The notes under the pieces are model-generated. The model did no database searches, had not been told where the DNA came from, and saw only the letters and a list, made by a program, of their open reading frames with translations. 64,000 bases of DNA, from positions 17,236,001 to 17,300,000 of the forward strand of contig OX597842.1 of NCBI GenBank assembly GCA_951406725.2, read 5' to 3'. This stretch comes from Octopus vulgaris. Taxonomy: Eukaryota. The translations under genes and the position numbers were made by a program. Shown here piece after piece: positions 3,992 to 64,000 of this stretch. Position 1 is the stretch's first letter. The number at the start of each line of letters is the position of its first letter.

Positions 3992-4036
<45 letters not shown>

Positions 4037-4261
4037 CAATCAATATAGGGTGGCAAGGAAAATTTTGCAGAATTTTTTTGCCACCAGCGGCCCAGTGGGA
4101 AAAAATTAAATAGTCATAGACCATTTTTAAGTTCAACATTAACAATTAAGGAACGGCCATAATAGGCCATTCACCCACTAGAAATAACAGCCAAAGCTTC
4201 TACCGCAAATAAAGATCAATTCCGTAAATCAGGAGAAAATTAAAAAAACATTTACCCTGTA

Positions 4262-4368
4262 ATTTCTTGTACGGTATACCGTTTCATCTGCTGTTTAATG
4301 GTAAACTAACCTGATTAAATTAAATCAAGCCAATCTTCCATAAGCCCTCAGATTCTTCAGCAAGAAAT
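4262..4368 (-). ncRNA. Type I hammerhead ribozyme (485-bp unit)
   Basis: Reverse complement of 5105-5211. Confidence 0.85.
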
Positions 4369-5104
4369 AGCTCAAGTCGGAACAGATATTTACACGAGTA
4401 TACCCAATCCTGCCAAGGCAATATCTGACCTAAAATTTTCAAATCGTCGCACTCGCGCCAAATTTATCGGCAGCAAATAAATCGTCGATTCCATTACGGA
4501 ATTAACCAAAAAATTCATAATTAATCAATATAGGGTGGCAAGGAAAATTTTGCAGAATTTTTTTGCCACCAGCGGCCAGTGGGAAAAAATTAAATAGTCA
4601 TAGACCATTTTTAAGTTCAACATTAACAATTAAGGAACGGCCATAATAGGCCATTCACCCACTAGAAATAACAGCCAAAGCTTCTACCGCAAATAAAGAT
4701 CAATTCCGTAAACAGGAGAAAATTAAAAAAACATAAATGTTTTTTTAATTTTCTCCTGTTTACGGAATTGATCTTTATTTGCGGTAGAAGCTTTGGCTGT
4801 TATTTCTAGTGGGTGAATGGCCTATTATGGCCGTTCCTTAATTGTTAATGTTGAACTTAAAAATGGTCTATGACTATTTAATTTTTTCCCACTGGGCCGC
4901 TGGTGGCAAAAAAATTCTGCAAAATTTTCCTTGCCACCCTATATTGATTAATTATGAATTTTTTGGTTAATTCCGTAATGGAATCGACGATTTATTTGCT
5001 GCCGATAAATTTGGCGCGAGTGCGACGATTTGAAAATTTTAGGTCAGATATTGCCTTGGCAGGATTGGGTATGCCTCGTGTAAATATCTGTTCCGACTTG
5101 AGCT

Positions 5105-5211
5105 ATTTCTTGCTGAAGAATCTGAGGGCTTATGGAAGATTGGCTTGATTTAATTTAATCAGGTTAGTTTACCATTAAACAGCAGATGAAACGGTATACC
5201 GTACAAGAAAT
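5105..5211 (+). ncRNA. Type I hammerhead ribozyme (485-bp unit)
   Basis: atttcttg CTGAAGA atctg..cagat GAAA cggtataccg TA caagaaat; 8-bp stem I; ACGGTATACCGT palindrome; predicted cut after A5203. Confidence 0.9.
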
Positions 5212-5335
5212 TACAGGGTAAATGTTTTTTTAATTTTCTCCTGTTTACGGAATTGATCTTTATTTGCGGTAGAAGCTTTGGCTGTTATTTCTAGTGGGTG
5301 AATGGCCTATTATGGCCGTTCCTTAATTGTTAATG

Positions 5336-5454
<119 letters not shown>

Positions 5455-5519: not shown

Positions 5520-5618
5520 TGAAATACTAATTATCGAATCTCAGTTTTTTATACGCTAGACCACTGGTGTTAAAACTGATGTTATCAAATTAATATCAAT
5601 TTTTCACCCTCATTTTCA

Positions 5619-5622
<4 letters not shown>
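5520..5622 (+). mobile_element. 3'-terminal fragment related to the 505-bp HHR unit
   Basis: gctagaccact..aatatcaattt..accct is shared with 19072-19114 and, inverted, with 37811-37872. Confidence 0.5.
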
Positions 5623-10603: not shown

Positions 10604-10619
10604 TATATATACATATATA

Positions 10620-10665
<46 letters not shown>

Positions 10666-10792
10666 TAAATATATATATATTTATATATATATATATATAT
10701 AATATTATTAGAGACAAAACCACTTTTTTGCAAAACAAACAAGGAAAGACTTAATCAATACATAAAATTTTAATAAATAGTCAAAAAAACCG

Positions 10793-10835
10793 CCACTACA
10801 ATCGTTTCTTGTCTTGATCGACAATCTTCAGGTGG
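10793..10835 (-). ncRNA. Type I hammerhead ribozyme
   Basis: Reverse complement of 17409-17451. Confidence 0.85.
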
Positions 10836-13800
10836 ACTTCAATCTAAAATATCAATATTTTAAAATATACAAATAATAATTTTAAAATAATTAAAGTATG
10901 AATGAAAAAATATAAATATATAATCCATATATAACCTATATATAATCCATATATAATCAATATATAAACAATATATAAACTAAAATAAACCTATCAACAA
11001 TTAAATATAAAATATAAAATATAAAACAAAACAAAAAAATAATAATAATATAATAATAAACTATATATACACCCATACACATATACCTAATTATATATAA
11101 CCATATCTAACTACATACACTAAACCACACACCTATATATATATCCCTATACATTCACATAAAAACGTCTAGGCAACTATAAATAAATAAAATAGCTAAA
11201 TACTTCAACACAATACTTATTCATACTCCCACACACACACACATACAACCCACATTCACGCTCTAGAAAACGGACATCACTCAAAATTATGAACGGAGAA
11301 ATGGAATAAATGGAATTAAAAATTATATTCACTTGGTAAAACGAACACTCCTTAAAAATTATGAATGAAACAATGCAATAAAACAACAGACATCGCAAAT
11401 ATACACAAATTACTACGAATTCCTTAACAAACCTACCATGATAAACCAAAACTCACAAAAACATATAATGATAAAATCTCCCTTTACTAAACTCTATAAC
11501 ATACCTATATAGCAATCCCCCTAACCTAAACATTCACACACAAATACACACACGTAAACCACACACCCACGACATATACAAATACCCACACCACTTACAC
11601 ATACCAATACATACATATAAACCTCAACATATACTCCAAAAACCCACTCAACCCCACACAGACAAATAAACACAAAAATTATGAATGGATTCTTTTATAA
11701 AACTACCATGATAAGCTAAAACTCACAAAAAGAAATGATAAAACCTCCCTTTACTAAACACTATAACATACTTATATAGCAATCCCTTTAACCTATACAT
11801 TCACACACAAAAACACACACGTAAACCAAACACCCATAACAAATACAAACACCCACCCCACTCACACACACCCACAAGTACATATAAGCCTCAACATATA
11901 CACCAAACAAAATTACTTTACCAAGGAACTTAACATATGTATAAAAAGTATAACCGCTCTGGAAACGAACATCTCTAAATTAATGAATGGAGAAATGGAA
12001 TAAATGGAATTAAAAATAATATTCACGTGGCAAAACGAACACCACTCAAAAATTATGAATGAAACAATGTAATAAAACAACCAACATCGAAAATAGACAA
12101 ATTACCACGAATTCCCTAAAAAAACCATGATAAACCAAAACTCTTAAAAACATATAACGATAAAATCTCCCTTTGCTAAACTCTATAACAAACCTATATA
12201 GCAATCCCCCTAACCTAAACATTCACACACAAATACACACACGTAAACCACAGACCCACGACTTATACACATACCTATACTAACTTATAAACCTCAATAT
12301 ACACCAAAATCCACTCCCTCCACACACAGACAAATTAACACATACATCCCAAAACCTAAATAACAAACCCATATACACATTCACACACAAACACACACAC
12401 GCAAAACACACACACACAACAGATACATATACTCCCTCACATATACGCATATACATACTCACTAAACTCGATATATACAACAATATTTACACACCCACAC
12501 TCATACAGATAAATAAATTATACAACTAAAAACTCACACACAATCTCATATACATAAACACTCCTATGAAAACAACATTAAATACATCGTAATTAACCAG
12601 AATATCAAAAATAACAATATGACATAAGGATAAATAAAATACATACTTACATATCAGTTTCAAATTATAAAGTGAAATTAAATTCTTAGCCGTTAAAAAA
12701 ATCAAACCAAAATTACGTTACCATAGAAATAACTTATGTAAAAAAAGAATACGAATACGCGCCATGGAAAGTAAACGTCATTTAAATTATGAATGGAGAA
12801 AAAGAATAAATGGAACTAAAAACTATATCCACGTGGCAAACCAACACTACTTAAAAAATTTATTATGAATGGATTCTTTAAAAAACTACCATGAAAAATC
12901 CCTCCATACCCAATTTACACCCACTTAGCAATCCCAATATATTCATCCATACATGGACGCACGTGCGTGAAGCACATGCATACAATAAATACGTACAACC
13001 CCCCAATACACACTCATATACATACGTATCAAGCTCGACATCCACAGCGATACGTTTACACCCACTCACACCAAGATGGGTGAATTGCACAACCAGGGAA
13101 CGCACACACACATGTGTGCGTTTTTTGATTGTGCAACTCGCCCATATGCATGTATGCGGGCGCGATTACATTGTTGCATATATCGAGCCCAAATAGCATG
13201 CATATGTACATGTGAGGGGGTACACGCTAATGACGTGCGCGTGTACCCCCTGCATTTATACCCGTGCGTGAATATACACATGGAGACTACCACACAGGTA
13301 CAAATGTGTATAGTAATGGGAGCCCCATCACTACACTCAATGTACACTCTCACCCATCCGCACGGAAGTGAAAGTGAATCTCCGGTGTATATGTTGAGGC
13401 TTATATGTAGCGCTGTGGAGGCGAACGTCGTTGAAATTGTGAATGAATGGGTGGAGTTGGGAATTGTAACCGGGTGGTGGACTAGCGTTGCTTGGAATTG
13501 TGAGTGGAATAGTGTAGTAGTGAGGTAGGCATCGAGAATAGGTTTGGGTTGCTGCAAGTTGTTTGTTAGAGCTGCTAAGGTGAGCTAAAGCTCATAAATG
13601 TATATAATGATTTTTCATGGTAGTTTTTTAAAGAATCCATTCATAATAAATTTTTTAAGTAGTGTTGGTTTGCCACGTGGATATAGTTTTTAGTTCCATT
13701 TATTCTTTTTCTCCATTCATAATTTTAAATGACGTTTACTTTCCATGGCGCGTATTCTTTTTTTACATAAGTTATTTCTATGGTAACGTAATTTTGGTTT

Positions 13801-16800
13801 GATTTTTTTAACGGCTAAGAATTTAATTTCACTTTATAATTTGAAACTGACTTGTAAGTATGTATTTTATTTATCCTTATGTCATATTGTTATTTTTGAT
13901 ATTCTGGTTAATTACGATGTATTTAATGTTGTTTTCATAGGAGTGTTTATGTATATGAGATTGTGTGTGAGTTTTTAGTTGTATAATTTATTTATCTGTA
14001 TGAGTGTGGGTGTGTAAATATTGTTGTATATATCGAGTTTAGTGAGTATGTATATGCGTATATGTGAGGGAGTATATGTATCTGTTGTGTGTGTGTGTTT
14101 TGCGTGTGTGAGTGTTTGTGTGTGAATGTGTATATGGGTTTGTTATTTAGGTTTTGGGATGTATGTGTTAATTTGTCTGTGTGGGAGGGAGTGGGTTTTG
14201 GTGTATATTGAGGTTTATAAGTTAGTATAGGTATGTGTATAAGTCGTGGGTCTGTGGTTTAAGTGTGTGTATTTGTGTGTGAATGTTTAGGTTAGGGGGA
14301 TTGCTATATAGGTTTGTTATAGAGTTTAGCAAAGGGAGATTTTATCGTTATAGGTTTTAAGAGTTTTGGTTTATCATGGTTCTTTTAGGGAATTTGTGGT
14401 AATTTGTCTATTTTCGATGTTGGTTGTTTTATTACATTGTTTCATTCATAATGTTTGAGTGGTGTTCGTTTTGCCACGTGTATATTATTTTTAATTCCAT
14501 TTATTCCATTTCTCCATTCATTAATTTAGAGATGTTCGTTTCCAGAGCGGTTATATTTTTTATACATATGTTAAGTTCCTTGGTAAAGTAATTTTGTTTG
14601 GTGTATATGTTTAGGCTTATTTGTACTTGTGGGTGTGTGTGAGTGGGGTGGGTGTTTGTATTTGTTATGGGTGTGTGGTTTACGTGTGTGTTTTTGTGTG
14701 TGAATGTATAGGTTAAAGGGATTGCTATATAAGTATGTTATAGTGTTTAGTAAAGGGAGGTTTTATTATTTTCTGTTTTGTGAGTTTTAGCTTATCATGG
14801 TAGTTTTATAAAAGAATCCATTCATAATTTTTGTGTTTATTTGTATGTGTGGGGTTGAGTGGGTTTTGGAGTATATGTTGAGGTTTATATGTATGTATTG
14901 CTATGTGTAAGTGGTGTGGGTATTTGTATATGTCGTGGGTGTGTGGTTTACGTGTGTGTATTTGTGTGTGAATGTTTAGTTTAGGGGGATTGCTATATAG
15001 GTATGTTATAGAGTTTAGTAAAGGGAGATTTTATCATTATATGTTTTGTGAGTTTTGGTTTATCATGGTAGGTTTGTTAAGGAATTACTCTCACCCATCC
15101 GCACGGATGTGAATCTCCGGTGTATATGTTGAGGCTTATATGTAGCGCTGTGGAGGCGAACGTCGTTGAAATTGTGAATGAATGGGTGGAGTTGGGAATT
15201 GTAACCGGGTGGTGGACTAGCGTTGCTTGGAATTGTGAGTGGAATAGTGTAGTAGTGAGGTAGGCATCGAGAATAGGTTTGGGTTGCTGCAAGTTGTTTG
15301 TTAGAGCTGCTAAGGTGAGCTAAAGCTCATAAATGTATATAATGATTTTTCATGGTAGTTTTTTAAAGAATCCATTCATAATAAATTTTTTTAAGTAGTG
15401 TTGGTTTGCCACGTGGATATAGTTTTTAGTTCCATTTATTCTTTTTCTCCATTCATAATTTTAAATGACGTTTACTTTCCATGGCGCGTATTCTTTTTTT
15501 ACATAAGTTATTTCTATGGTAACGTAATTTTGGTTTGATTTTTTTAACGGCTAAGAATTTAATTTCACTTTATAATTTGAAACTGACTTGTAAGTATGTA
15601 TTTTATTTATCCTTATGTCATATTGTTATTTTTGATATTCTGGTTAATTACGATGTATTTAATGTTGTTTTCATAGGAGTGTTTATGTATATGAGATTGT
15701 GTGTGAGTTTTTAGTTGTATAATTTATTTATCTGTATGAGTGTGGGTGTGTAAATATTGTTGTATATATCGAGTTTAGTGAGTATGTATATGCGTATATG
15801 TGAGGGAGTATATGTATCTGTTGTGTGTGTGTGTTTTGCCTGTGTGTGTGTTTGTGTGTGAATGTGTATATGGGTTTGTTATTTAGGTTTTGGGATGTAT
15901 GTGTTAATTTGTCTGTGTGTGGAGGGAGTGGATTTTGGTGTATATTGAGGTTTATAAGTTAGTATAGGTATGTGTATAAGTCGTGGGTCTGTGGTTTACG
16001 TGTGTGTATTTGTGTGTGAATGTTTAGGTTAGGGGGATTGCTATATAGGTTTGTTATAGAGTTTAGCAAAGGGAGATTTTATCGTTATATGTTTTTAAGA
16101 GTTTTGGTTTATCATGGTTTTTTTTAGGGAATTCGTGGTAATTTGTCTATTTTCGATGTTGGTTGTTTTATTGCATTGTTTCATTCATAATTTTTTGAGT
16201 GGTGTTCGTTTTGCCACGTGAATATTATTTTTAATTCCATTTATTCCATTTCTCCATTCATTAATTTAGAGATGTTCGTTTCCGGAGCGGTTATACTTTT
16301 TATACATATGTTAAGTTCCTTGGTAAAGTAATTTTGTTTGGTGTATATGTTGAGGCTTATATGTACTTGTGGGTGTGTGTGAGTGGGGTGGGTGTTTGTA
16401 TTTGTTATGGGTGTTTGGTTTACGTGTGTGTTTTTGTGTGTGAATGTATAGGTTAAAGGGATTGCTATATAAGTATGTTATAGTGTTTAGTAAAGGGAGG
16501 TTTTATCATTTCTTTTTGTGAGTTTTAGCTTATCATGGTAGTTTTATAAAAGAATCCATTCATAATTTTTGTGTTTATTTGTCTGTGTGGGGTTGAGTGG
16601 GTTTTTGGAGTATATGTTGAGGTTTATATGTATGTATTGGTATGTGTAAGTGGTGTGGGTATTTGTATATGTCGTGGGTGTGTGGTTTACGTGTGTGTAT
16701 TTGTGTGTGAATGTTTAGGTTAGGGGGATTGCTATATAGGTATGTTATAGAGTTTAGTAAAGGGAGATTTTATCATTATATGTTTTTGTGAGTTTTGGTT

Positions 16801-17408
16801 TATCATGGTAGGTTTGTTAAGGAATTCGTAGTAATTTGTGTATATTTGCGATGTCTGTTGTTTTATTGCATTGTTTCATTCATAATTTTTAAGGAGTGTT
16901 CGTTTTACCAAGTGAATATAATTTTTAATTCCATTTATTCCATTTCTCCGTTCATAATTTTGAGTGATGTCCGTTTTCTAGAGCGTGAATGTGGGTTGTA
17001 TGTGTGTGTGTGTGGGAGTATGAATAAGTATTGTGTTGAAGTATTTAGCTATTTTATTTATTTATAGTTGCCTAGACGTTTTTATGTGAATGTATAGGGA
17101 TATATATATAGGTGTGTGGTTTAGTGTATGTAGTTAGATATGGTTATATATAATTAGGTATATGTGTATGGGTGTATATATAGTTTATTATTATATTATT
17201 ATTATTTTTTTGTTTTGTTTTATATTTTATATTTTATATTTAATTGTTGATAGGTTTATTTTAGTTTATATATTGTTTATATATTGATTATATATGGATT
17301 ATATATAGGTTATATATGGATTATATATTTATATTTTTTCATTCATACTTTAATTATTTTAAAATTATTATTTGTATATTTTAAAATATTGATATTTTAG
17401 ATTGAAGT

Positions 17409-17451
17409 CCACCTGAAGATTGTCGATCAAGACAAGAAACGATTGTAGTGG
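17409..17451 (+). ncRNA. Type I hammerhead ribozyme
   Basis: ccac CTGAAGA ttgtc-gatcaa-gacaa GAAA cgattg TA gtgg. Confidence 0.88.
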
Positions 17452-17628
17452 CGGTTTTTTTGACTATTTATTAAAATTTTATGTATTGATTAAGTCTTTC
17501 CTTGTTTGTTTTGCAAAAAAGTGGTTTTGTCTCTAATAATATTTTATAATATTTTACTATAAAATTAGATTTAATCCTAAATCTGATTTTTTTTCCCTGT
17601 AAATTTGGATTTATTCCCTAATATTTAT

Positions 17629-17747
<119 letters not shown>

Positions 17748-17912
17748 CATATTTATATATACCAATTAAGGACTGAACACGAAAAGTGGACAGTCAACAT
17801 GCTAGATATAGAGGTCAAATCGCCATTCTCCACAAAAGATTATGTTCTCAGATCAAACTCAACACAAAACCATAGCAATAAACAAGTGAAAATATACGAA
17901 ATAAATATTTAC

Positions 17913-17976
17913 CCATGTACTAATTAGTTTCGGCTGTTATTTTCCGCAAGGAAAAGTGCAGCCATCATTAGCATGG
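17913..17976 (-). ncRNA. Hammerhead copy with core mutation (CTAATGA), probably inactive
   Basis: Same as 18418-18481 except G5>A. Confidence 0.7.
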
Positions 17977-18417
17977 TCCGATATAAAATGCAATTTGCTG
18001 GACTAGATGCAAACACGATACCGAAATATCGCGTGCATGGAGTACAGCCTATTACATTTGAATATATATTTCAAATGCCTTTACTTTTGGCGCGATGAGA
18101 CCCGAGAAAACTAGCCTGCAGCTAATAATTAGCAGCAGTTAATTTATCGGTTAGAGAACATCTATTTATATAAAATTAATTTAGGGTAGAAATTGATATT
18201 TATCAATTAGAACCAGTGGTCTAGCATATTAAAAAAAGAATCCGAAGATTAAAATATTTCTATATACCAATTAAGGACTGAACACGAAAAGTGGACAGTC
18301 AACATGCTAGATATAGAGGTCAAATCGCCATTCTCCACAAAAGATTATGTTCTCAGATCAAACTCAACACAAAACCATAGCAATAAACAAGTGAAAATAT
18401 ACGAAATAAATATTTAC

Positions 18418-18481
18418 CCATGTACTAATTAGTTTCGGCTGTTATTTTCCGCAAGGAAAAGTGCAGCCATCATCAGCATGG
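18418..18481 (-). ncRNA. Type I hammerhead ribozyme (505-bp unit)
   Basis: Reverse complement of 18816-18879. Confidence 0.88.
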
Positions 18482-18815
18482 TCCGATATAAAATGCAATT
18501 TGCTGGACTAGATGCAAACACGATACCGAAATATCGCGTGCATGGAGTACAGCCTATTACATTTGAATATATATACTGGTTCTAATTGATAAATATCAAT
18601 TTCTACCCTAAATTAATTTTATATAAATAGATGTTCTCTAACCGATAAATTAACTGCTGTTAATTATTAGCTGCAGGCTAGTTTTCTCGGGTCTCATCGC
18701 GCCAAAAGTAAAGGCATTTGAAATATATATTCAAATGTAATAGGCTGTACTCCATGCACGCGATATTTCGGTATCGTGTTTGCATCTAGTCCAGCAAATT
18801 GCATTTTATATCGGA

Positions 18816-18879
18816 CCATGCTGATGATGGCTGCACTTTTCCTTGCGGAAAATAACAGCCGAAACTAATTAGTACATGG
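18816..18879 (+). ncRNA. Type I hammerhead ribozyme (505-bp unit)
   Basis: ccatg CTGATGA t ggctg..ttttcc-ttgc-ggaaaa..cagcc GAAA ctaattag TA catgg; ACTAATTAGT palindrome. Confidence 0.9.
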
Positions 18880-19120
18880 GTAAATATTTATTTCGTATAT
18901 TTTCACTTGTTTATTGCTATGGTTTTGTGTTGAGTTTGATCTGAGAACATAATCTTTTGTGGAGAATGGCGATTTGACCTCTATATCTAGCATGTTGACT
19001 GTCCACTTTTCGTGTTCAGTCCTTAATTGGTATATAGAAATATTTTAATCTTCGGATTCTTTTTTTAATATGCTAGACCACTAGTTCTAACTGATAAATA
19101 TCAATTTCTACCCTAAACTA

Positions 19121-19158
<38 letters not shown>

Positions 19159-20087
19159 TATATGTATTTACGTATATATATATAATATATACACACATTC
19201 ATACATACATGAATACATTCACACACATACATATAAACACACATACATACATATATACATACACATACATACACACATTCATACATACATGGAAGCATGC
19301 TGTGTTACAGGGCGTCGCTTCATCTCCCATTTCTAAGGGATTCCTTGGCGGACGACCCCTTTGTACAATTTAGGCGAGAACCTAAATTAGTTGTTTTTAC
19401 GAAACGCAGACGATACATTGGGTCTATTCATTGATATGCCAGTCCCCTCACAGCCCTGGGGCAACGTGAAATGCGGAACTTTGCTCAAGGATCACACACG
19501 CCATCCCGTCCAGGAATCGATCGCATGTTCATCGAATCGTGAGTGCAAATCCTGTCCCCTAAGCCACTCACATTCACTGATGAAAAAAATTATAAACGTT
19601 GGGATTATATTTTAAAATTCAATAAAACAATAATCATTTTCCCTGATTGTGAGTATCTTATCACTTCTGGATACTAATCGATACTAAGAACATAACTAGA
19701 TTATAATCAACGGGAAACATGTCTACTTAAGAGGAAAAAGAATGAAAATATACTTTCAACAAATAAATCACGGTTGACTACATATTGAATAGACTCAAGG
19801 ATGATTATCCCAATCAGCAGCCGGATATTATTAATTAATATTTCCCATTTATTCTTTCAAAGTGATTATGCCTCAGCGTTGTAAAGACTTCACGAAAATA
19901 TTTCTAGTTCGAACTTGTTACTTTTCTTAAATTAATGAGGCTTTTCATTTGTGATTATATCATGACGTGGCAGATGTATCATTTTAATGAGGATGTGCGT
20001 GTGTGGACGTGTACACGTGTGTGTGTATATATGCGTGTATATATATATATATACATAGGAAAAAAGCAACATGAATGTATCAATATA

Positions 20088-20172
20088 TCGGTACAATTGT
20101 TTCGTTCGAGGACATCTTTAATAAAGCTACAAAAATTGCAGTAAATATAGGTGGCTCATACTCATCAGCCGA
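20088..20172 (-). ncRNA. PLE hammerhead ribozyme (inverted arm)
   Basis: tcgg CTGATGA gtatgag..ctcgaac GAAA caattg TA ccga. Confidence 0.8.
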
Positions 20173-21549
20173 AAAAACATCCGAGATTCCCTTACATCAA
20201 AGGGGGTAATGTTACACTCGTGAAACATCATGGAAAGTTCTATAAAAATGAGAATTTAGATAACATATTGGTTTCTAAGAGTTCAATTAGTATTACACAG
20301 TCATATATCAGGTTATTAAAAAGTTTTTTCAAAACATCTTAGTTTTCCAGAAAGTGAATATAAAAGTGAGGGTGTGAGTTTATCCGTATTGAAAAAGTTT
20401 GATTCCTGGAGATCCGATGAGAGGTATCGAACTCACAGAATATGTGTTTGTCCATATATAGTTCATAGTAAATTGTTAATCAAGCTATGTGAAGAAAGTT
20501 TGGATATAATCGTGCGAAATTTCTGAAAACTGCTGCATTATAATCCGAGGGATAAGCGTAGCGACAGCCTTATAGTGGAGACGAACAGGCTGCTATCGAA
20601 ATCTACAAGAATCACAGAGCTAAAGGAAGAAAGTTGAATTTAACCAACTACTGCTATTAATTGCTATATAAAGAGGAAATGGGAAGATGAAAGGGAGGGT
20701 CAAAAGTTGTTACTATAAGAAAACATCTTAGCGTATTTGGTGCAAAATTCAAACGGAGGTCATTTAATTTATTTCTATATTTATTAATGTTACTATTAAT
20801 AGATTGTCAGGTTATGGGGATATAATAAGAGGTCAGAAGAAAAGAAAAGAAAATGGAGTTATTTTCTAATGAAACCGTACTATTATATTATATTATATTA
20901 TATTATAGGTTTGGGATTATCAGAATGAGTTATTAGTGTAAAAGACCTAAGAAGTTTAACTAACTAATTTCCTATAAGTAGGTTAAATTAAAATAGACTA
21001 AGAATTAGAGAAATAATTTAAATTATCTACATAGTCTAATAGAATGAAGAATTAAATCAAATAACTTAAATCAATAAGTATCACCTAGTACAGTTAGAGA
21101 GAGAATATAATCATAGCTAATTAGATCGTAGCTGTCTAATTAAATATATAATAAAATATGTAGGAGTAAAGTTTTATTCAAAGGGATTTTATATTAAGTG
21201 ATTTTAATATATATACTGTTATCAATTAAAACATCATTTAAAATATTTAAGAGTCTTAGTCCGAGCGTGGATACAAGATTTTCCCAGTTCAATCCTGCTG
21301 TTCAATAAAATATCATTATTTTTTCTATACATTAGTATTTCAAATGTTTCCATGGAGCAAAGTTGACAACCTACTCTGTTATTTTTATAGGGTATCGCTC
21401 TTCTAACTAATTCCCAATTAAGGTTATATTTGATATTATTGTTTTTTAGTTCCCAAATTTTACTAGAAAGAGTGGTGCTATCAGCTTTATGACGTAATCT
21501 GAAGGAGGATAGATGATTGCTAATTCTTTGCCGAAAATTTATGGTAAAT

Positions 21550-23943
21550 ATAGTAAATCTAGTAAATTTATCCTCGATAATGTTTTACCCCAAATAACCC
21601 CACTTCTTCCCTTAAGCCTATGGATAAATACCGATGAGGTACTTAATGGTTTAACTCCCTAACTAATACCAATAATCTAGTCTTCATTCAATTTGACATA
21701 AACAACTACTGCTCTAGCATTTCCCCTATTCTATTAAATAAATCGCTTATATTCGCGATGAATCGCTCCCTCATATCTAGAGAGGAAATATACATTGTAC
21801 TTTTAGCTAGAAAAACATTTATTGAGTTTGAGGGAAAATTATGGACCAGAGCGGATACCCCTAATAATTTCGATATTCCTATGGGCTCAAGTGTTTCTGC
21901 TGAGGTGACCAACTTAGTCGGAGCATATCTACTAAAATGCATAAGAAATGAGATCCCTGAATTGCAAGGTGGTTTATATAGAGATGATGCTTTGTTTGTT
22001 GTCCATAGTAATAATAAATCACACATAGAAAGAATCAAAAAGAAAATTAATAGGTTCTTTAAAGATTTCAACCTTAGCATAACCTATGAGCCAGGCATTA
22101 AAATAGCCAATTTTCTAGATATTACATTAGACCTTAACTCTAAACTACATTACCCATTAGAAAAGAAGGTGAAATCACTAGTTACGTAAGTAAATTATCT
22201 AATCATCCCCCAAATATAATTAATTCCTTAGTTAGAAATATTTCCATAAGAATATCCAAATTATCGTCTAATTTTGATATATTTAACTCACACTCAGAGC
22301 ATTATAATGAGGTGTTATTTAGAGCAGGATATAACAAAAAAATTACATTTATTGATATAGAAAACTTACAAACTCATAATAAGTTAAATAATTTAAATAA
22401 CAATAACCACGTAAACAACAAAAACGATCAAGCCGAAAAGATACGTAGAGGTAGATTTAATACAACATCTAATCGAAATGGTAATAAGAACAAGGATAAC
22501 TGCATAGACCATAACATGGATAGCCCTGATAAGACAATTTTAGATAAAATTAAGAAGCATACAATTAGTAACGTAGACAACAATAAGGATCAAGCCAGAA
22601 ATAATAGTAGAAGTAGATTTACAACGGCAAAATATCCTAATGAAATTAAGAATAACAATAAGAACATAGTACTGAACACATGTAATACGGTTAAAATAAA
22701 CTTTGATAACACTAAGAAACATGCAAATAATAAATACAAAGAATCTGATGATAGAAAGAACAATTCAAACAACCCCAACTCTAATTCTAAGAAATTTAAT
22801 AAGAAAGACATAATATGGCTAAACATCCCTTTTAACTGTGCGGTTTTATCAGATATTCAGAGTAAATTCAAAACAATTCTAGAAAAGAATTTCCCATCCT
22901 CTCATAGATATCATAAAATTATTTCTAAAAAAACAGTCAGAATTTCTTATTCAACCCTCCCAAATATGTCCACTTTAATAGCCAAGATCAATAATAATAA
23001 CATAAAACTAGCCAGGAAAAATTTAAACAATAGCAATAAAAATACAAATGAAAACTGTAATAACATTACTGAAAGTAATAATAGCAACAATGGTAATAAT
23101 GAATGTTATATAATAAGTATAACCAATAGCTATAGAATTGCTAATAATAATAATAACACAAATAGGAATAATTATATTAATAATACGAATTATACCAAGA
23201 ATGTAAGTACAGTAAATGAAGACAACAATGTTATCTGCAATAACACTACACATTTAGAAACCAATACCGACAACAAAACTAACAGCATCAACAATATTAA
23301 TAATGAAAGTAGGGTTATAGAACCAAATGATAGTGTAGGAATACCGATAAATGATAATACTACTTTAGATAATAACATTAACTACAATACTGATAACATT
23401 ATTTTAGATAACAGCAGTAACCAAAATTATGAAAAATATACTCGTACTGTCTCGAGTAACAGTAGTATGAGACTTCTATCCTCGAATTATTCCACATCAA
23501 ATTATAATTCCCCTAGATGTAACTGCAGGATTAAATCAAAATGCCCGGCGCCTGGTTTATGCGGGTTAAATAATATAATCTACAAATGCTCCATAACCAC
23601 AGATAATAACAAATTCACTTATTTAGGATGTACCGTAAATTTTAGAAAAAGAATTAGCAATCATCTATCCTCCTTCAGATTACGTCATAAAGCTGATAGC
23701 ACCACTCTTTCTAGTAAAATTTGGGAACTAAAAAACAATAATATCAAATATAACCTTAATTGGGAATTAGTTAGAAGAGCGATACCCTATAAACATAACA
23801 GAGTAGGTTGTCAACTTTGCTCCATGGAAACATTTGAAATACTAATGTATAGAAAAAATAATGATATTTTATTGAACAGCAGGATTGAACAGGGAAAATC
23901 TTGTATCCACGCTCGGACTAAGACTCTTAAATATTTTAAATGA
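21550..23943 (+). pseudogene. PLE reverse transcriptase-GIY-YIG ORF (frameshifted 5' part, open 22312-23943)
   Basis: QFDINNY, PMGSSVSAEVTNLVG, LYRDD, FLDI; IIWLNIPF; CNCR..CP..C; IIYKC..YLGCT..FRKR..NH; CQLC..E..LLN..CIH. Confidence 0.92.
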
Positions 23944-24413
23944 TGTTTTAATTGATAACAGTATATATTAAAATCACTTTATATAAAATCCCTTTGAATA
24001 AAACTTTACTCCTACATATTTTATTATATATTTAATTAGACAGCTACGATCTAATTAGCTATGATTATATTCTCTCTCTAACTGTACTAGGTGATACTTA
24101 TTGATTTAAGTTATTTGATTTAATTCTTCATTCTATTAGACTATGTAGATAATTTAAATTATTTCTCTCTAATACTTAGTCTATTTTAATTAAACCTACT
24201 TATAGGAAATTAGTTAGTTAAACTTCTTAGGTCTTTTACACTAATTTTAATTTAACCTACTTCTAGGAAATTAGTTAGTTAAACTTCTTAGGTCTTTTAC
24301 ACTAATAACTAATTCTGCTAATCCCAAACCTATAATATAATATAATATAATATAATATAATATAATATAATATAATATAATATAATATAATAGTACGGTT
24401 TCATTAGAAAATA

Positions 24414-25677
24414 CGAGGGGCGTTCAATAAGTAATGCCTCTGACCCACTTGCAGTTGTGCAATCATTTTTATCTCTATAGAGTAAGTGGCAAATTACAGC
24501 TCTGAACTAATTGTGGTTTCTGATTTACAGGTGTTTGAACCGAGTCAAGTGTGAAATGGAGCCTGTTAAGTGTCGAGCAGTAATCCGGTTTTTGTATTTG
24601 AAAGGACGCACACCACCGGAGACTTTTGATGAAATGAAAGTAACTTATGGTGATGATACCCCATCATATGACCTTGTAAAACGCTGGCATAGTGAATTCA
24701 AACATGGTCGGAACTCTGTGGAAACAGCTCCCAGATCTGGTCGACCCCTTCTGCCATTGATGAGGCATCTGTTCGTCAAGTTGAGGCTGCCATTTTGGAA
24801 GATCGACGCATAATTATTCGCCAAATAGCCCATGAGGTCAAGATTAGTACCGGGTCTGTGGAAACTATCATTCATGACCATTTGCATATGCAAAAGGTGT
24901 CTGCCAGATGGATTCCCAGGTTGCTCACGCCTTTCCAGAAGCAAGAGCGCGTCGAGTGCTCGAGGGTGAATTTGGAGATGTGCCAAGAAGATGAGTCAAA
25001 ATTTTTCAAAAGACTGATTACACAGGGTGAAACCTGAGTCCATCACGATGATCCAGAGACCAAAGCCCAGTCAATGCAGTGGAAGCACCGTGACTCACCC
25101 CCTCCAAAGAAGGCAAGGGTGCAGCCCTCCGCTGGCAAGGTCATGCTCACAGTCTTCTGGGACCAGGACGGAGTAGTGATGACAGATTTCCTGGCAAAGG
25201 GTACCACAATTGCAGGAGCCTATTATGCTTCACTTTTGAGGAAATTAAGAGAAGTTATCAAAATCAAGAGGCGGGGCAAGATCAGCAAAGGCATCCTCCT
25301 CCTGCAGGACAACGCTCCGGTCCACAACTCGCTTGTCGCCAGATCAGAAGCACAGGCGTATGGCTATGAACTCCTCCCCATCCCCCTACTTTCCTGACCT
25401 TGCACCCTCTGATTTTCACCTCTTCCCAATCATGAAGATGTTTTTGAAAGGAAAGCGTTTCCCAGATGATGCAGCCTTGATTTCTGAAGTCACGTTGAGG
25501 TTGGAGGACCAAGCTGGGTTCTTCTACAAAAACGGTCTCCAGAGCCGCATGAAACGATGGGAGAAATGCGTAACTCTGGGTGGTTCCTATGTAGAAAAAG
25601 ACTAATAACTGTGCCAAGTTTCGGTGCCTACTGCTATGGGAAGTGGGTCAGGGGCATTACTTATTGAACGCCCCTCC
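24414..25677 (+). mobile_element. Full-length inactivated mariner (DD34D-type) transposon; transposase 24556-25605 with frameshifts and a stop
   Basis: TIRs cgaggggcgttcaataagtaatgcc / ggcattacttattgaacgcccctcc; TA TSD; WIPRLL, QDNA, YFPDLAPSDFHLF. Confidence 0.95.
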
Positions 25678-26368
25678 TAACTCCATTTTCTTTCCTTTTC
25701 TTCTGACCTCTTATTATATCCCCATAACCTGACAATCTATTAATAGTAACATTAATAAATATAGAAATAAATTAAATGACCTCCGTTTGAATTTTGCACC
25801 AAATACGCTAAGATGTTTTCTTATAGTAACAACTTTTGACCCTCCCTTTCATCTTCCCATTTCCTCTTTATATAGCAACTAATAGCAGTAGTTGGTTAAA
25901 TTCAACTTTCTTCCTTTAGCTCTGTGATTCTTGTAGATTTCGATAGCAGCCTGTTCGTCTCCACTATAAGGCTGTCGCTACGCTTATCCCTCGGATTATA
26001 ATGCAGCAGTTTTCAGAAATTTCGCACGATTATATCCAAAATTTCTTCACATAGCTTGATTAATAATTTACTATGAACTATATATGGACAAACACATATT
26101 CTGTGAGTTCGATACCTCTCATCGGATCTCCAGGAATCAAACTTTTTTCAATACGGATAAACTCACACCCTCACTTTTATATTCACTTTCTGGAAAACTA
26201 AGATGTTTTGAAAAAACTTTTTAATAACCTGATATATGACTGTGTAATACTAATTGAACTCTTAGAAACCAATATGTTATCTAAATTCTCATTTTTATAG
26301 AACTTTCCATGATGTTTCACGAGTGTAACATTACCCCCTTAGATGTAAGGGAATCTCGGATGTTTTTT

Positions 26369-26453
26369 TCGGCTGATGAGTATGAGCCATCTATATTTAC
26401 TGCAATTTTTGTAGCTCTATTAAAGTTGTCCTCGTACGAAACAATTGTACCGA
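26369..26453 (+). ncRNA. PLE hammerhead ribozyme
   Basis: tcgg CTGATGA gtatgag..ctcgtac GAAA caattg TA ccga; ACAATTGT palindrome. Confidence 0.88.
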
Positions 26454-26865
26454 TATATTGATCCATTCTTGTTGCTTTTTTCCTATTTGTATGTATATAT
26501 ATATGTATGTATGTATATGTATGTATGTATATATGTATGTATATATGTATGTTTGTATCAATGTATGTATATGTATGTTTGTATGTATGGTTGTGTATGT
26601 ATGTATGTATGTATATATGTATATATGTATGTATGTATGTATATACGTATGTATGTATGTATATATGTATATATGTATGTATGTATGTACGTATATATAT
26701 ATATATATATATATGTACGTAAGTATGTATATATGTATGTATGTATGTACGTATATATATATATATATATATGTACGTAAGTATGTATATATGTATGTAT
26801 GTATGTATATATGTATGTTTGTATGTATTTATGTACTTACGTATGCATGTATGTATGGATGTATG

Positions 26866-27422
26866 TCAGGTGACTTGTAACATGGCTACTGGTAACATGG
26901 AATCCACTACAGCCTGTTGCATGGTCGGGTCATCGGCAACTAAACCGGCAACCCCACCAAGTTTGCTTGGTGAGGAGGGTGTTTATTGGATACCCAGCGG
27001 GATAAAAAACAAAACCCGTCAAAGGGCGGAGGAACTCTTGAGAGTCAACGGCCATCCGATAAATGTCTTAAGGCTATATCATGCGCGAGGACATAGAAAT
27101 AATCGGACTCAATACCCGATCGCGCGGTTAAACCATTGGGAGTGAAGGACTCCTAGCCTTTGTTAGGGCATCCTTCAAGGAAGCGGTAACTCAGGTAACT
27201 GGGATAGCTCCGACATAAAACCTGCGGCTCAGTGGTTACCGATGATGTTGACTTTTTCTTCATTTCGGATTATGGGTGCTGTTGCTTAGTGAGTGGGATT
27301 GACTCAGTGCACAGCCTTTCCTCACTTTAAAAAAAATCTTCTTGCACAGGTATTGCACGATAACAACATTGATTAAGCTTCGTGCAATGGCCATACTCGA
27401 TAACGAGGGGGCAGCCACCATG
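26866..27422 (+). mobile_element. Non-coding repeat embedded in (ATGT)n, resembling an RTE-type LINE 5' UTR; partial copy at 33552-33672
   Basis: GC-richer island; gggcatcc..gg..ggtaactc motif recalled from RTE 5' UTRs; second copy shares ggctactggtaacatg..cagcctgttgcatggtcggg. Confidence 0.4.
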
Positions 27423-27652
27423 TATGTATGTATGTATGTATGTATGTATGCATGTATATATGTATGTATGTATGTATATATATATGTATGTATGTATGTA
27501 TGTATATATATGTATGTATGTATATATATATATATGTATGCATGTATGTATATATAAGTATGTATGTATGTATATATATGTATGTATGTATGTATGTATA
27601 TATATGTATGTATGTATATATATGTATGTATGTATATATATGTATGTATGTG

Positions 27653-27684
<32 letters not shown>

Positions 27685-27694
27685 TGTATATATA

Positions 27695-30424
27695 TATCGC
27701 CCTCCAGATGCCCCAAGCCATGTGGGCAAGTTTGAAGACTGCCTTATAAAAATAGAAGTTCTAACCACATTAGAACAACACATAAGTGTACTTCTTATGG
27801 GAGACTTCAATCTGCCAAATGTCAGATGGCCCGAGGGCCTTTCTCTCCCAGGAATGACAAGATGTGAACGAGGACAGGCGAGGTCCCTCCTGAACCTCAT
27901 CAACACCCTGTACATGGAGCAGGTAATACTCCAACCAACCAGGGCAGGTAACACACTGGATCTCTGCTTCACAAATGACATGGATCTCATCCATAATGTG
28001 AAAGTGACACCGACACTACTCTCGGATCACAACATGATAGAGCTGACCATGTACGGGCCAAAAGAGAGCACGGACATGCAGCCTACAAGAAACCCCCAGA
28101 ATCTTTCCAGCTTGAACTACCATAAGGCAAACTGGAAACAAATTGAGAAAGAGATCCTCAAACAAAACTGGCCTAAATGTCTCTCCTCGCCAGACATCGA
28201 CGTGAAACTTCAACAATTCATGTCTGTAATGCAAGCCATATGCTACAAATATGTCCCAGAGAGAAAGGCCACTGTACACAAGAACAAAATCCCCAGAGAG
28301 AGGAAATTTCTAATGAGACGGCGTACAAAATTTTCAAATCGCCTAAACAAACAGATTGAAAGCAGTGAAAAGTCCCGCCTAAAAATAAAACTGTTGGAAA
28401 TCGAAAAATGTCTGAAACTCTCCCATGAAAAGGAAAGAGCAGACAAAGAAGCCTGGGCTATAGACAACATAAAATCTAACCCCAGAGCTTTCTACAGGTA
28501 TGCCAAAGAAACAGCTACGGTGCACTGTAGAATAGGGCCACTCCTCGAAAAGGATGGCACACTTACAGGAAAACCAATGAGGGTAAGTGAAATACTGAAT
28601 GAGCAATTCAAGAGTGTTGTCACTCCACCCCTTGGGCATCTCCAAATCACCAATCCAACTGACTTTTTTACCACTGCAGATATAAAATCAGAGGCGGCGA
28701 CGATAGATTACATCGATATAAAGGAAGACGATCTAATCAAGGCTATAGATGAAATGAAAACAGACTCAGCTACTGGCCCCGATGGATTCCCGGCAATCCT
28801 CCTAAAAGCATGTAAGAGAGTCCTAGCAAGACCACTGCAGTTCCTCTTTCAGAGCTTCCTTGCAGCTGGCAAACTTCCAAGAAAACTGAAGGAAGGTAAA
28901 ATATGCCCCATTCATAAAGGAGGTAGTAGAGCGGAAGCCAAGAACTATAGACCTATCTCTCTGACCTCACACATCAGCAAGGTCATGGAACGAATAGTCA
29001 GAAGGAAGCTGATCACCTTCCTTGAAGAGAATGACTTGCTGCCCGACATCCAACATGGTTTCCGACCAGGGAGAAGCTGTTTAACTCAGCTCCTACAACA
29101 CTATGACTGGGTGCTGAAACGGCTGCTCAACCACTCAAATGTGGAAGTGATATATCTCGACTTTGCAAAGGCCTTTGATAAAGTCGATCATGGAATGATA
29201 TGTCACAAACTGCGTGATCTCAACATAGTTGGAAAACTGGGAGAATGGCTTCATGACTTTCTGAAAGATAGAAGTCAGGTGGTAGTGGCCAATGGGGCCA
29301 CTTCCATTAACACGCAAATAGTGAGCGGTGTTCCGCAGGGCACTGTTCTGGGACCACTACTGTTCATAATGGCCCTCTCAGACATGCCCTCAGCCACGCA
29401 GAGAGCCACGATCACAAGTTATGCAGATGATACAAAAGTTTCACAGGCAATACAGAACCCTGAGGACACTAAACACCTGCAATATGAGCTAGACAAAATA
29501 TACAAGTGGGCCGAAAAGAATAGCATGCAGTTCAATGCTGAAAAGTTTCAAGCTCTATACTATCAGCATGCAAAACTAAATGCAATACCCAATGAATACA
29601 CTGGACCCGGAGGAATAGCAATCCCAGAGGCACAATCAGTGCCTGACCTAGGTATTTACATGAGTGATGACGCGACCTTTCGTGTACATGTTGCTAAATT
29701 GGCAATGAAAGGTAGACGACTGGCCGGATGGATCATCAGAACCTTTAGAACAAGAGAACAAGAAACCATGATGGTCCTCTGGAGGACACTTGTCCTAAGC
29801 CACTTTGACTACTGCTCTCAGTTATGGTCACCATCCAGTGTCAAGTTGATCACAGAGCTCGAGGCGATCCAACGTAGCTACACGAAGAAGATAGCCTCTA
29901 TGCAGAATGTAAGCTACTGGGAAAGACTCAAGAAATTAAAATTATATTCCCTGGAGCGTAGGCGGGAAAGATATGCCATAATATATATCTGGAAGATCCT
30001 GGAGGGAAGTGTCCTGAACTTTGGCATCGAGAGTTACGCAAAAGCCAGAACTGGGCGCCACTGCGTGGTGCCTAGGACTCCAAACTTGCCATCAAGATGT
30101 AGGACAAGATTCTGTGATAGCCTGGTCTTCCGAGGCCAACAGCTCTTCAATATCCTCCCGAAGAACCTGAGAGACCTGCATGGGGTGGATACAGATGTCT
30201 TTAAAATGAAGCTGGATCTCTTCCTGTCAGGTGTCCCAGATGAACCAAGTTCGCGGCAGGAGGGGCAGATGAGGGCAGCTGCATCGAACTCTCTCATGCA
30301 CCAAATAGCAGTTGCTAGAAGGCCTTCATGAAGTGAAACCAAGTAGCAACACCAAATGGCGGTGCCCCAGCATGGCCACAGCTCATAAGCTGAAACTGGA
30401 AAAATCAAAATCAAAATCAAAATC
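27695..30424 (+). mobile_element. CR1-group LINE, 5'-truncated; ORF2 open 27695-30331 (~878 aa); (AAAATC)n tail
   Basis: APE motifs YRPP, GDFN, LDL, SDH; RT motifs QHGFR, DFAKAFD, GVPQGTVLGPLLF, YADD; LERRR. The N-terminal 89 aa of the listed ORF is microsatellite. Confidence 0.93.
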
Positions 30425-36885: not shown

Positions 36886-37250
36886 GAGGAATTTTTGTAA
36901 GGACATCAAAAAAAGGTTTAATAAAATAAAGTAAATTAAAAAAAGATACAATAAGGGAAAATACAAATGGGGTAATAGGGGAAAAAATCTGATATTTGCA
37001 AGCAAGTTTTAAAAGGGGAAAAAAGTAACAATAATAATAATAGTAAGAGAGACGAAAGGTAAAAAAGACAGACATACCCATGTTCATGCATGTCTATATG
37101 TGCAGTAATATACCTTTATCGGTATTTTTCAACTACTATTTTCATATTCTTATTACTTGCTCTGGCTGGGTTTTTTTATGAATATGATGAATATGAGAGA
37201 GATGAATAGACAAACACGTATGCATGCATGTAATCTTGTATATTTTTCAG

Positions 37251-37577
37251 GAATGGAAACATCAATTCAATATCATTTGATTCTCCTATTGCTGCCATAT
37301 TTGACGCTTGTATTTTCCGTAACTCCTGTAATTGGACAATCAACGTATAGAGAAAGCCAATTCAGAAAACTCACAACAAAATGCTTAACTGATCAGAATA
37401 AAACTACAGAAAAAGCGTCATCTCGTTTAGAATGTTCAATACTGTGTATTTCACGCGATGAGTGCGAATATTTTACCTATTGTAATGGCCGATGTTATAT
37501 GCACCGATTGTTCCACGACAAATACATCGAAGATTATGATTGCAACTGTTCATCGTATATTTCGGCCAAGGGAAACG
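37251..37577 (+). CDS. Exon 2: signal peptide plus PAN/apple-like domain
   Basis: tttttcag acceptor, gtatgt donor; hydrophobic LILLLLPYLTLVFSV; SRLECSILC...C.YFTY..GRC.M Cys pattern. Confidence 0.82.
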
Positions 37578-37661
37578 GTATGTAAATCAACATTTTCCTG
37601 TATGCTTTTCTAATTATTACATATTTTAATCAATATTCTATGTGTTATATATACAAATGAT

Positions 37662-37799
<138 letters not shown>

Positions 37800-38063
37800 A
37801 TTAATTAATAAGGGTGAGAGAATTAGATACTAATTTAATAGTATATCTATTCAACACCAAGTGGCCTAGTGCTCCGAGAAACCTGGATTATTATAATATT
37901 TTATAATATATTATAATATTTTTACAAAATAAATATAAGAGAGTGGTCACTATATGGCTCACTCTAGCACCAGTTAATCCAAAAGGTTTCAACCACAAAA
38001 ATACATGTATATATATATATGTATATATATATATGTATATAAATATATATATATATATACATA

Positions 38064-61633: not shown

Positions 61634-64000
<2,367 letters not shown>

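Follow-up and report, generated by a model that had tools for sequence, protein, structure and literature searches.

A two-armed, protein-free hammerhead tandem repeat in Octopus vulgaris: a likely non-LTR retrozyme with an insertion footprint like that of Penelope-like elements

Structure of the 505-bp insertion

The window, a stretch of 64,000 nucleotides from a contig of Octopus vulgaris, contains an insertion built from a 505-bp unit. Self-comparison gave the period directly (17756-18612 aligns with 18261-19117) and also produced inverted diagonals. It bore out the preliminary description in that the unit is present on both strands, with about 1.6 copies on the minus strand and about 1.1 on the plus strand. 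If window position 18575 is taken as U1, so that the unit runs from U1 to U505, the insertion can be described as two arms. The short-ended arm (17749-18574, minus strand, 826 bp) comprises 1.64 units, U149-U505 followed by U1-U469, and its 3' end lies at the TA run U457-464 of the unit, where it merges into (TA)n. The long-ended arm (18575 to about 19130, plus strand) comprises about 1.1 units, U1-505 and then U1 to about U46-51, and likewise merges into (TA)n at the unit TA run U46-51. The two arms meet head to head (5'-5') at 18574/18575, without a spacer and in different phases (U149 and U1). Both outer ends adjoin (TA)n, as had been reported before; the tract extends over 17621-17761 on the left and 19126-19191 on the right. 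The segment of about 94 nt from the short to the long 3' end (19031-19130, plus strand) is referred to here as the tail and is a candidate protein-binding site. A terminal direct repeat of about 50 bp, which had been described as a feature of the plus-strand copy, is present, but it is no more than the stretch by which an arm of 1.1 units exceeds one unit.

The two arms are nearly identical, with few differing positions. Four substitutions fall in the final 50 bp of the plus-strand arm (19083-19125) as against two across the remaining 1.3 kb, and this combination of four was absent from the other loci fetched. No clean empty site was found among paralogues of the right flank. These paralogues run on into other sequence, and the locus therefore sits at a rearranged junction. 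With regard to a target-site duplication, both flanks consist of (TA)n.

Hammerhead motifs, coding content and predicted fold

Motif parsing confirmed that the insertion carries two intact type I hammerheads and one G5>A copy. The plus-strand motif (18816-18879) has an intact core composed of CTGATGA (18821-18827), GAAA (18861-18864) and GTA (18872-18874), with cleavage predicted after 18874. Its stem I is CCATG/CATGG, stem II is extended, and stem III is short with a palindromic loop. An identical intact copy lies on the minus strand at 18418-18481, and the third motif (17913-17976, minus strand) reads CTAATGA as a result of the G5>A change at 17969. This change, which inactivates the hammerhead core, occurred in 1 of 139 units examined.

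Rfam did not recognise a hammerhead at the 505-bp element. The window gave no match at the gathering score, and relaxing the limit to E<=1 brought up only AT-repeat noise near the element. The hammerhead call is therefore founded on the motif parsing, on the intact core in 135 of the 139 units examined across the family (two of three at the window locus) and on covariation of stem I between sister families, in which it reads CTACG/CGTAG or CTGTG/CACAG, so that pairing is retained despite divergence. The unit is non-coding (longest stop-free frame 59 codons; G+C content 33.9%), and a search of the unit for a tRNA head found none. As a circle the window unit is predicted to fold with -128.3 kcal/mol (z = -4.6 against 40 dinucleotide shuffles).

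In the accessible text of Li, Clavereau and Pollet (2026; 10.64898/2026.07.22.740005) a retrozyme is regarded as active if two consecutive units have complete hammerheads. Such pairs were found at many loci of the family, but not at the window locus, which is therefore likely to be a product more than a source.

The family and its two fixed 3' ends

Searching the genome (2.8 Gb in 227 contigs) with the 505-bp unit yielded 1785 candidates, of which 39 were scored. Identity to the window copy, which falls in a minor subfamily, was mostly about 95%. Exact patterns gave lower bounds of at least 653 short-end junctions (a pattern that also picks up sister subfamilies), at least 438 long-end junctions and at least 481 hammerhead cores, with no matches to the reversed-pattern controls. 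The insertions thus number in the hundreds, are dispersed over many contigs and lie in (TA)n.

Two samples of loci were compared. Sample 1 consisted of the 39 best-hit loci including the window locus: 28 were two-armed and 11 single-armed. Among the two-armed insertions 25 of 28 combined a long with a short end, two were long+long with central TA, one was other+long and none was short+short. The 3' ends of the arms lay at about U46-58 (long) and about U457-469 (short). Sample 2 comprised 91 distinct loci found via the short junction only. They derive from the first 95 in a list of 100 of the 653 matches; four of these lay within loci already counted, and six loci were common to sample 1. One locus (L369), where the pattern had matched an internal expanded TA run, was scored by hand. 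Here 77 of 91 loci were two-armed, and 75 of these 77 were long+short (71 simple, four complex; p about 2e-21 against even odds). The remainder consisted of one other combination, one complex short+short locus and 14 single-armed loci. The long ends, which had not been selected for TA, adjoined TA in 71 of 74 cases. The unit has three TA runs of at least 6 nt, and the two 3' ends fall at two of them (U46-51 and U457-464), about 94 nt apart; their exact positions are uncertain by a few bases, since the ends merge with the (TA)n target.

The preliminary description had interpreted the insertion as circular permutations of one cycle, entered at different points on the two strands. Arbitrary entry must be abandoned, as the outer ends are the two 3' ends that are fixed throughout the family. 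In other words, the arms are not free circular permutations: their 3' ends are fixed and only their 5' ends vary. A genome-wide breakpoint map had been suggested as a check, with fixed ends in all copies as the outcome that would speak against permutation. The sampled loci show this for one half of the ends, the 3' ends being fixed at two sites; variability is confined to the 5' ends.

Variable 5' ends and head-to-head junctions

Clustering of the long-arm 5' ends in sample 1 was set aside, because the full-length query biases it, and junction statistics were taken from sample 2 only. Positions were taken from the ends of BLAST alignments and may be off by a few bases. The 5' ends are variable and peak broadly at U326-375. 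None of 158 arms (0/86 short, 0/72 long) started at the hammerhead cut (U296-306). Like those of Penelope-like elements (PLEs), these variable ends are 5' truncations. The longest arms reach 7.1 units and run uninterrupted across the hammerhead cut.

Of the 72 simple two-armed loci, 20 have arms that end at the same unit position to within 3 nt, against 2.7 expected, and none of 20,000 permutations reached this number. Outside the U326-375 peak the same-phase stops amount to 8 of 37, compared with 1.1 expected. Ten of the 72 long arms end close to the short site. Spacer-free palindromic junctions were seen in 7 of 74 cases and are centred on short self-complementary words. Palindromes at the inverted junctions of PLEs are known and have been attributed, in the part of PMC3846280 that was available, to self-priming.

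Sister families and the shared tail

A second element of this type, a 485-bp hammerhead element, lies at 4032-5337 with a long-ended minus-strand arm and a short-ended plus-strand arm. Its fold-back junction at 4734 has a 2-nt spacer, and paralogues without the element exist. The unit had been described as unrelated in sequence to the 505-bp unit but identical in architecture. The architecture is indeed the same and no BLAST match links the two, but short motifs are common to them at both ends and in the tail.

Two smaller pieces of the window (5520-5622 and 37811-37872) had been listed as solitary 3' termini related to the 505-bp unit. They do have the common tail motif, but they are truncated copies of two other families. 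The first (5521-5622, plus strand) is a tail-only fragment of a related third family, not of the 505-bp unit, and lies between TA runs. The second (37803 to about 38007, minus strand, with its right boundary set by eye) is a 5'-truncated long-ended copy of a 535-bp hammerhead tandem family. This family is very young, and in all 40 scored matches an 87-bp piece of the 37.8-kb copy was 100% identical. With the tail piece as query, 11 of 17 distinct loci were two-armed, and all 11 were long+short. In the near-identical copies L150-L179 of this family the 5' truncations cluster at the hammerhead (about V301-346), unlike those of the 505-bp family.

Seven related tails have a core motif in common that folds as a small hairpin. 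A consensus of the seven sequences retains only this 5-pair hairpin, with no compensatory change. A helix linking both start sites was predicted in a single fold and, being absent from the consensus, was discarded.

Autonomous Penelope-like elements in the same genome

Two protein searches and a GIY-YIG family search revealed that the genome carries intact elements of 781 aa and 775 aa that combine a reverse transcriptase (RT) with a GIY-YIG endonuclease. Further PLE families were found, one a degraded family that we take to be Neptune-type and several that we presume to be Hydra-like; clade names, here and below, were assigned from motifs, and Pfam confirms RT and GIY-YIG only. The 3' ends of the 781-aa and 775-aa elements fall at internal TA runs, in two positions about 35-40 nt from each other. 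The ends seen at 30 loci of the 775-aa family were long in 16 cases, short in 9 and internal in 2, and inverted long+short pairs occur at L210 and L219/L220 (775-aa family) as well as at L105 (781-aa). Autonomous Neptune-type PLEs of the same genome thus leave the insertion footprint of the 505-bp family.

The very young Neptune-type loci L210-L239 were 100% identical in protein in 76 of 76 scored matches; many have an intact 775-aa frame, and they carry a hammerhead-like core, CCGAAGA. Upstream of the main frame, the 781-aa Neptune-type loci L100-L105 have a second one that reaches 479 aa at most, and a motif scan of them found no canonical hammerhead.

An autonomous PLE with an end homologous to the 505-bp unit was sought among 150 fetched PLE loci, many of them redundant, and no linked match was seen; this sample is incomplete and did not target the Naiad and Poseidon clades. 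None of the autonomous families sampled has sequence in common with the 505-bp unit. Nor did a PLE reading frame run into the tail at any of 189 tail-bearing loci. Tail-profile matches inside PLE loci were considered as partner ends and dismissed as independent nested insertions. An 18-nt match between the 485-bp unit and the 781-aa element was taken as chance, since it lies within the reading frame and on the opposite strand. That the 505-bp unit is itself an autonomous PLE was ruled out, as the unit has no RT/GIY-YIG frame.

Insertion mechanism and nature of the template

In our view the two-armed insertion of a protein-free hammerhead tandem repeat is probably explained by a non-LTR retrozyme copied in trans by the RT/GIY-YIG protein of a PLE. 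The link to PLEs is supported by the two fixed ends, the pairing of a long with a short end, the 5' truncation, the TA target and the matching footprint of elements that encode RT and GIY-YIG. Against this explanation, no homologous autonomous partner appeared among the families sampled, the tail of 94 nt is longer than those described, Rfam misses the hammerhead, and the insertion has no clean empty site.

The events may be pictured as follows. A PLE RT-endonuclease would bind the 94-nt tail and cut a (TA)n tract on both strands. The DNA ends would then prime reverse transcription, each from one of the UA runs on either side of the tail, probably aided by base pairing of these runs with the (TA)n target. 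The two cDNAs would extend for up to about seven units, halt at variable points and be joined head to head (5'-5'), in many cases as a fold-back. Joining might rely on microhomology, on collision at the short site or on a template jump that produces the fold-back. The template would be an RNA that covers the unit more than once, and the arrays would also have undergone local tandem change once inserted.

What this template was can be approached through rare variants, defined as those found at no more than two loci and covered by at least three units, with the window locus and L031 excluded. Five variants were present in every covering unit of an insertion, four of them in both arms. Ten were present in only some units, each confined to one arm, and 100 were singletons. 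At L046 and L064 the short arm carries a variant in its last unit and the long arm carries it in its penultimate unit, whereas the neighbouring units are without it; at L052 a variant alternates between units. Variants in all units of both arms need a bottleneck of one unit at some step. A monomer circle alone cannot yield the unit-restricted patterns of L046, L064 and L052. These patterns fit the use by both primers of one tail of a heterogeneous multimer, be it linear or circular, or a change after insertion. Detection of a circRNA junction at the GUA site, suggested in the preliminary description, would not discriminate, since ligation of a circle at this site yields the very sequence of tandem read-through.

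The original proposal, that a monomeric circular RNA is reverse-transcribed by a rolling-circle process from arbitrary entry points to give permuted copies, thus appears improbable. A circle would readily account for arms of up to 7.1 units that continue across the hammerhead cut, for the five loci with a rare variant in every covering unit and for the lack of 5' ends at the cut site; the predicted circular fold and the circles demonstrated for other retrozymes (PMC7229834, accessible parts) also speak for it. On this proposal, however, entry would be arbitrary, and it occurs at two fixed sites; nor would one expect the ten rare variants confined to some units of an arm, or the unit-restricted variants at L046, L064, L052 and elsewhere. 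A stronger competitor, to which we give somewhat less than an even chance, keeps the enzyme and the two-site priming but supposes that only linear uncleaved multimers serve as templates, that unequal DNA exchange enlarges the arrays and that the hammerhead is an inherited PLE relic. This accords with the available portions of two studies, in which PLE insertion in vitro did not need hammerhead cleavage (PMC11167929) and eight of nine Xenopus retrozyme dimers were uncleaved (10.64898/2026.07.22.740005). The shared last-unit and penultimate-unit variants of L046 and L064, and variants in adjacent units, point the same way. It is less comfortable with variants in all units of both arms, for which a one-unit bottleneck has to be supposed, and with the preservation of hammerhead pairing while sister families diverge. 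Amplification at the DNA level as a satellite or fold-back, or an assembly artefact, without any RNA step, might come to mind in view of the many near-perfect palindromic junctions, since library or assembly errors can produce such structures. We regard it as very improbable, given the fixed and unequal outer ends, the strict pairing, the 5' truncation, the dispersal over many contigs, the TA targeting and the matching footprint in RT-encoding elements.

Returning to the trans-copied retrozyme, we favour hammerhead-derived circles as the template for part of the events, the balance against uncleaved linear multimers being about even. What survives of the earlier proposal is therefore the retroposition of a hammerhead RNA into (TA)n, which is supported, and a circle as a possible intermediate in view of the shared variants and the fold. 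The permutations provide no evidence for it, the 3' ends being fixed and the 5' ends truncated. A more specific scheme, which we put forward tentatively and consider rather unlikely in its entirety, is that a single ribonucleoprotein primes both ends of the (TA)n break by pairing and copies a hammerhead-made circle for several turns, and that the trailing polymerase switches to the leading cDNA once this has stalled, so giving rise to the same-phase fold-backs. If true, it would tie retrozyme circles directly to the two-site priming of Penelope and would supply a minimal template for reconstitution.

Comparison with known systems

The comparisons below refer to the accessible parts of the cited papers. 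The 505-bp family fits the definition of a non-LTR retrozyme in every feature that sequence can address. Like the metazoan non-LTR retrozymes (PMC7229834; 10.64898/2026.07.22.740005) it has a type I hammerhead in each non-coding tandem unit, a low G+C content (33.9%; criterion <45%) and a self-paired predicted circle, and it coexists with PLEs. The unit of 505 nt is above the range of 170-400 nt in PMC7229834 and inside that of 51-972 bp in 10.64898/2026.07.22.740005. Cleavage and circles of the 505-bp family are predictions. Two-armed insertions with two fixed 3' ends are a feature of the 505-bp family that was not found in the accessible text of either source; the supplements of the latter may list similar ones.

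In its mode of insertion the family appears to behave like a non-autonomous PLE (cf. PMC8557442, PMC4209133). An inverted 5'-truncated copy, a one-ended tail and two RT start sites have been described for PLEs (PMC8557442, PMC11167929, PMC3846280). The endonuclease-bearing (EN+) PLEs Neptune, Naiad, Poseidon and Hydra (PMC8557442, PMC3846280) share with the 505-bp family the head-to-head inverted 5'-truncated arm, the one-ended tail, tandem units, a microsatellite target and palindromes at the inverted junction. Their tails, however, are 30-40 nt long as against 94 nt, and the 505-bp unit has no reading frame; the local Neptune-type elements, with 35-40 nt between the 3' ends, also have the shorter spacing. 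The Poseidon element PAc, studied in vitro by Frangieh et al. (2024; PMC11167929), resembles the 505-bp family in that two internal RT start sites define the tail and in that both target strands are cut and extended, as would be the case here. PAc, the one PLE studied in vitro, differs in that its RT starts at a site without homology to the cut DNA, whereas the putative start sites of the 505-bp family are UA runs that could pair with (TA)n.

Twin priming of L1 is a further parallel, with a head-to-head inversion and outer ends at priming sites. The 505-bp family, in which 10 of 72 long arms end near the short site, differs from it in having a fixed second priming site, no poly(A) and arms that overlap by up to several units.

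The literature searched, with most subscription journals outside it, contained no publication on cephalopod retrozymes or on pairing and junction statistics of this kind. What we describe is a new family of a known kind of element; the kind is known and the architecture has been described qualitatively for PLEs, which limits the surprise, and the quantitative footprint is a useful addition. It bears on the way in which PLEs produce tandem and inverted copies, and on whether the circles of animal retrozymes are real templates of PLE transposition. A protein-free template of 505 nt with two mapped start sites and a strict long+short rule lends itself to testing in vitro, which is also aided by three classes of junction, a natural core mutant and the presence in this genome of intact young PLE proteins.

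Neighbouring elements in the window

The 505-bp element occupies the right-hand TA tract of a larger tandem-plus-inverted element (10604-17689), which has a period of about 1740 bp, lies between TA runs and contains short hammerhead-like motifs at 17413 (plus strand) and 10831 (minus strand). A broken PLE at 20038-26503 has RT and endonuclease-like frames (21647-23943), an inverted arm and a hammerhead at 26373. It is split by a mariner-like transposase remnant near 24400-25680, and its relatives in the genome have frames of 980-1090 aa. A second PLE remnant (61689-62823) includes a hammerhead at 61896 (minus strand) and an N-terminal piece of a reading frame. The window also contains a long unbroken LINE-type frame with endonuclease and RT (27404-30331) and, at 37109-37585, a frame of 158 codons that resembles a secreted cysteine-rich exon, presumably PAN/apple-like; the latter region is part of a segmental duplication on contig C29.
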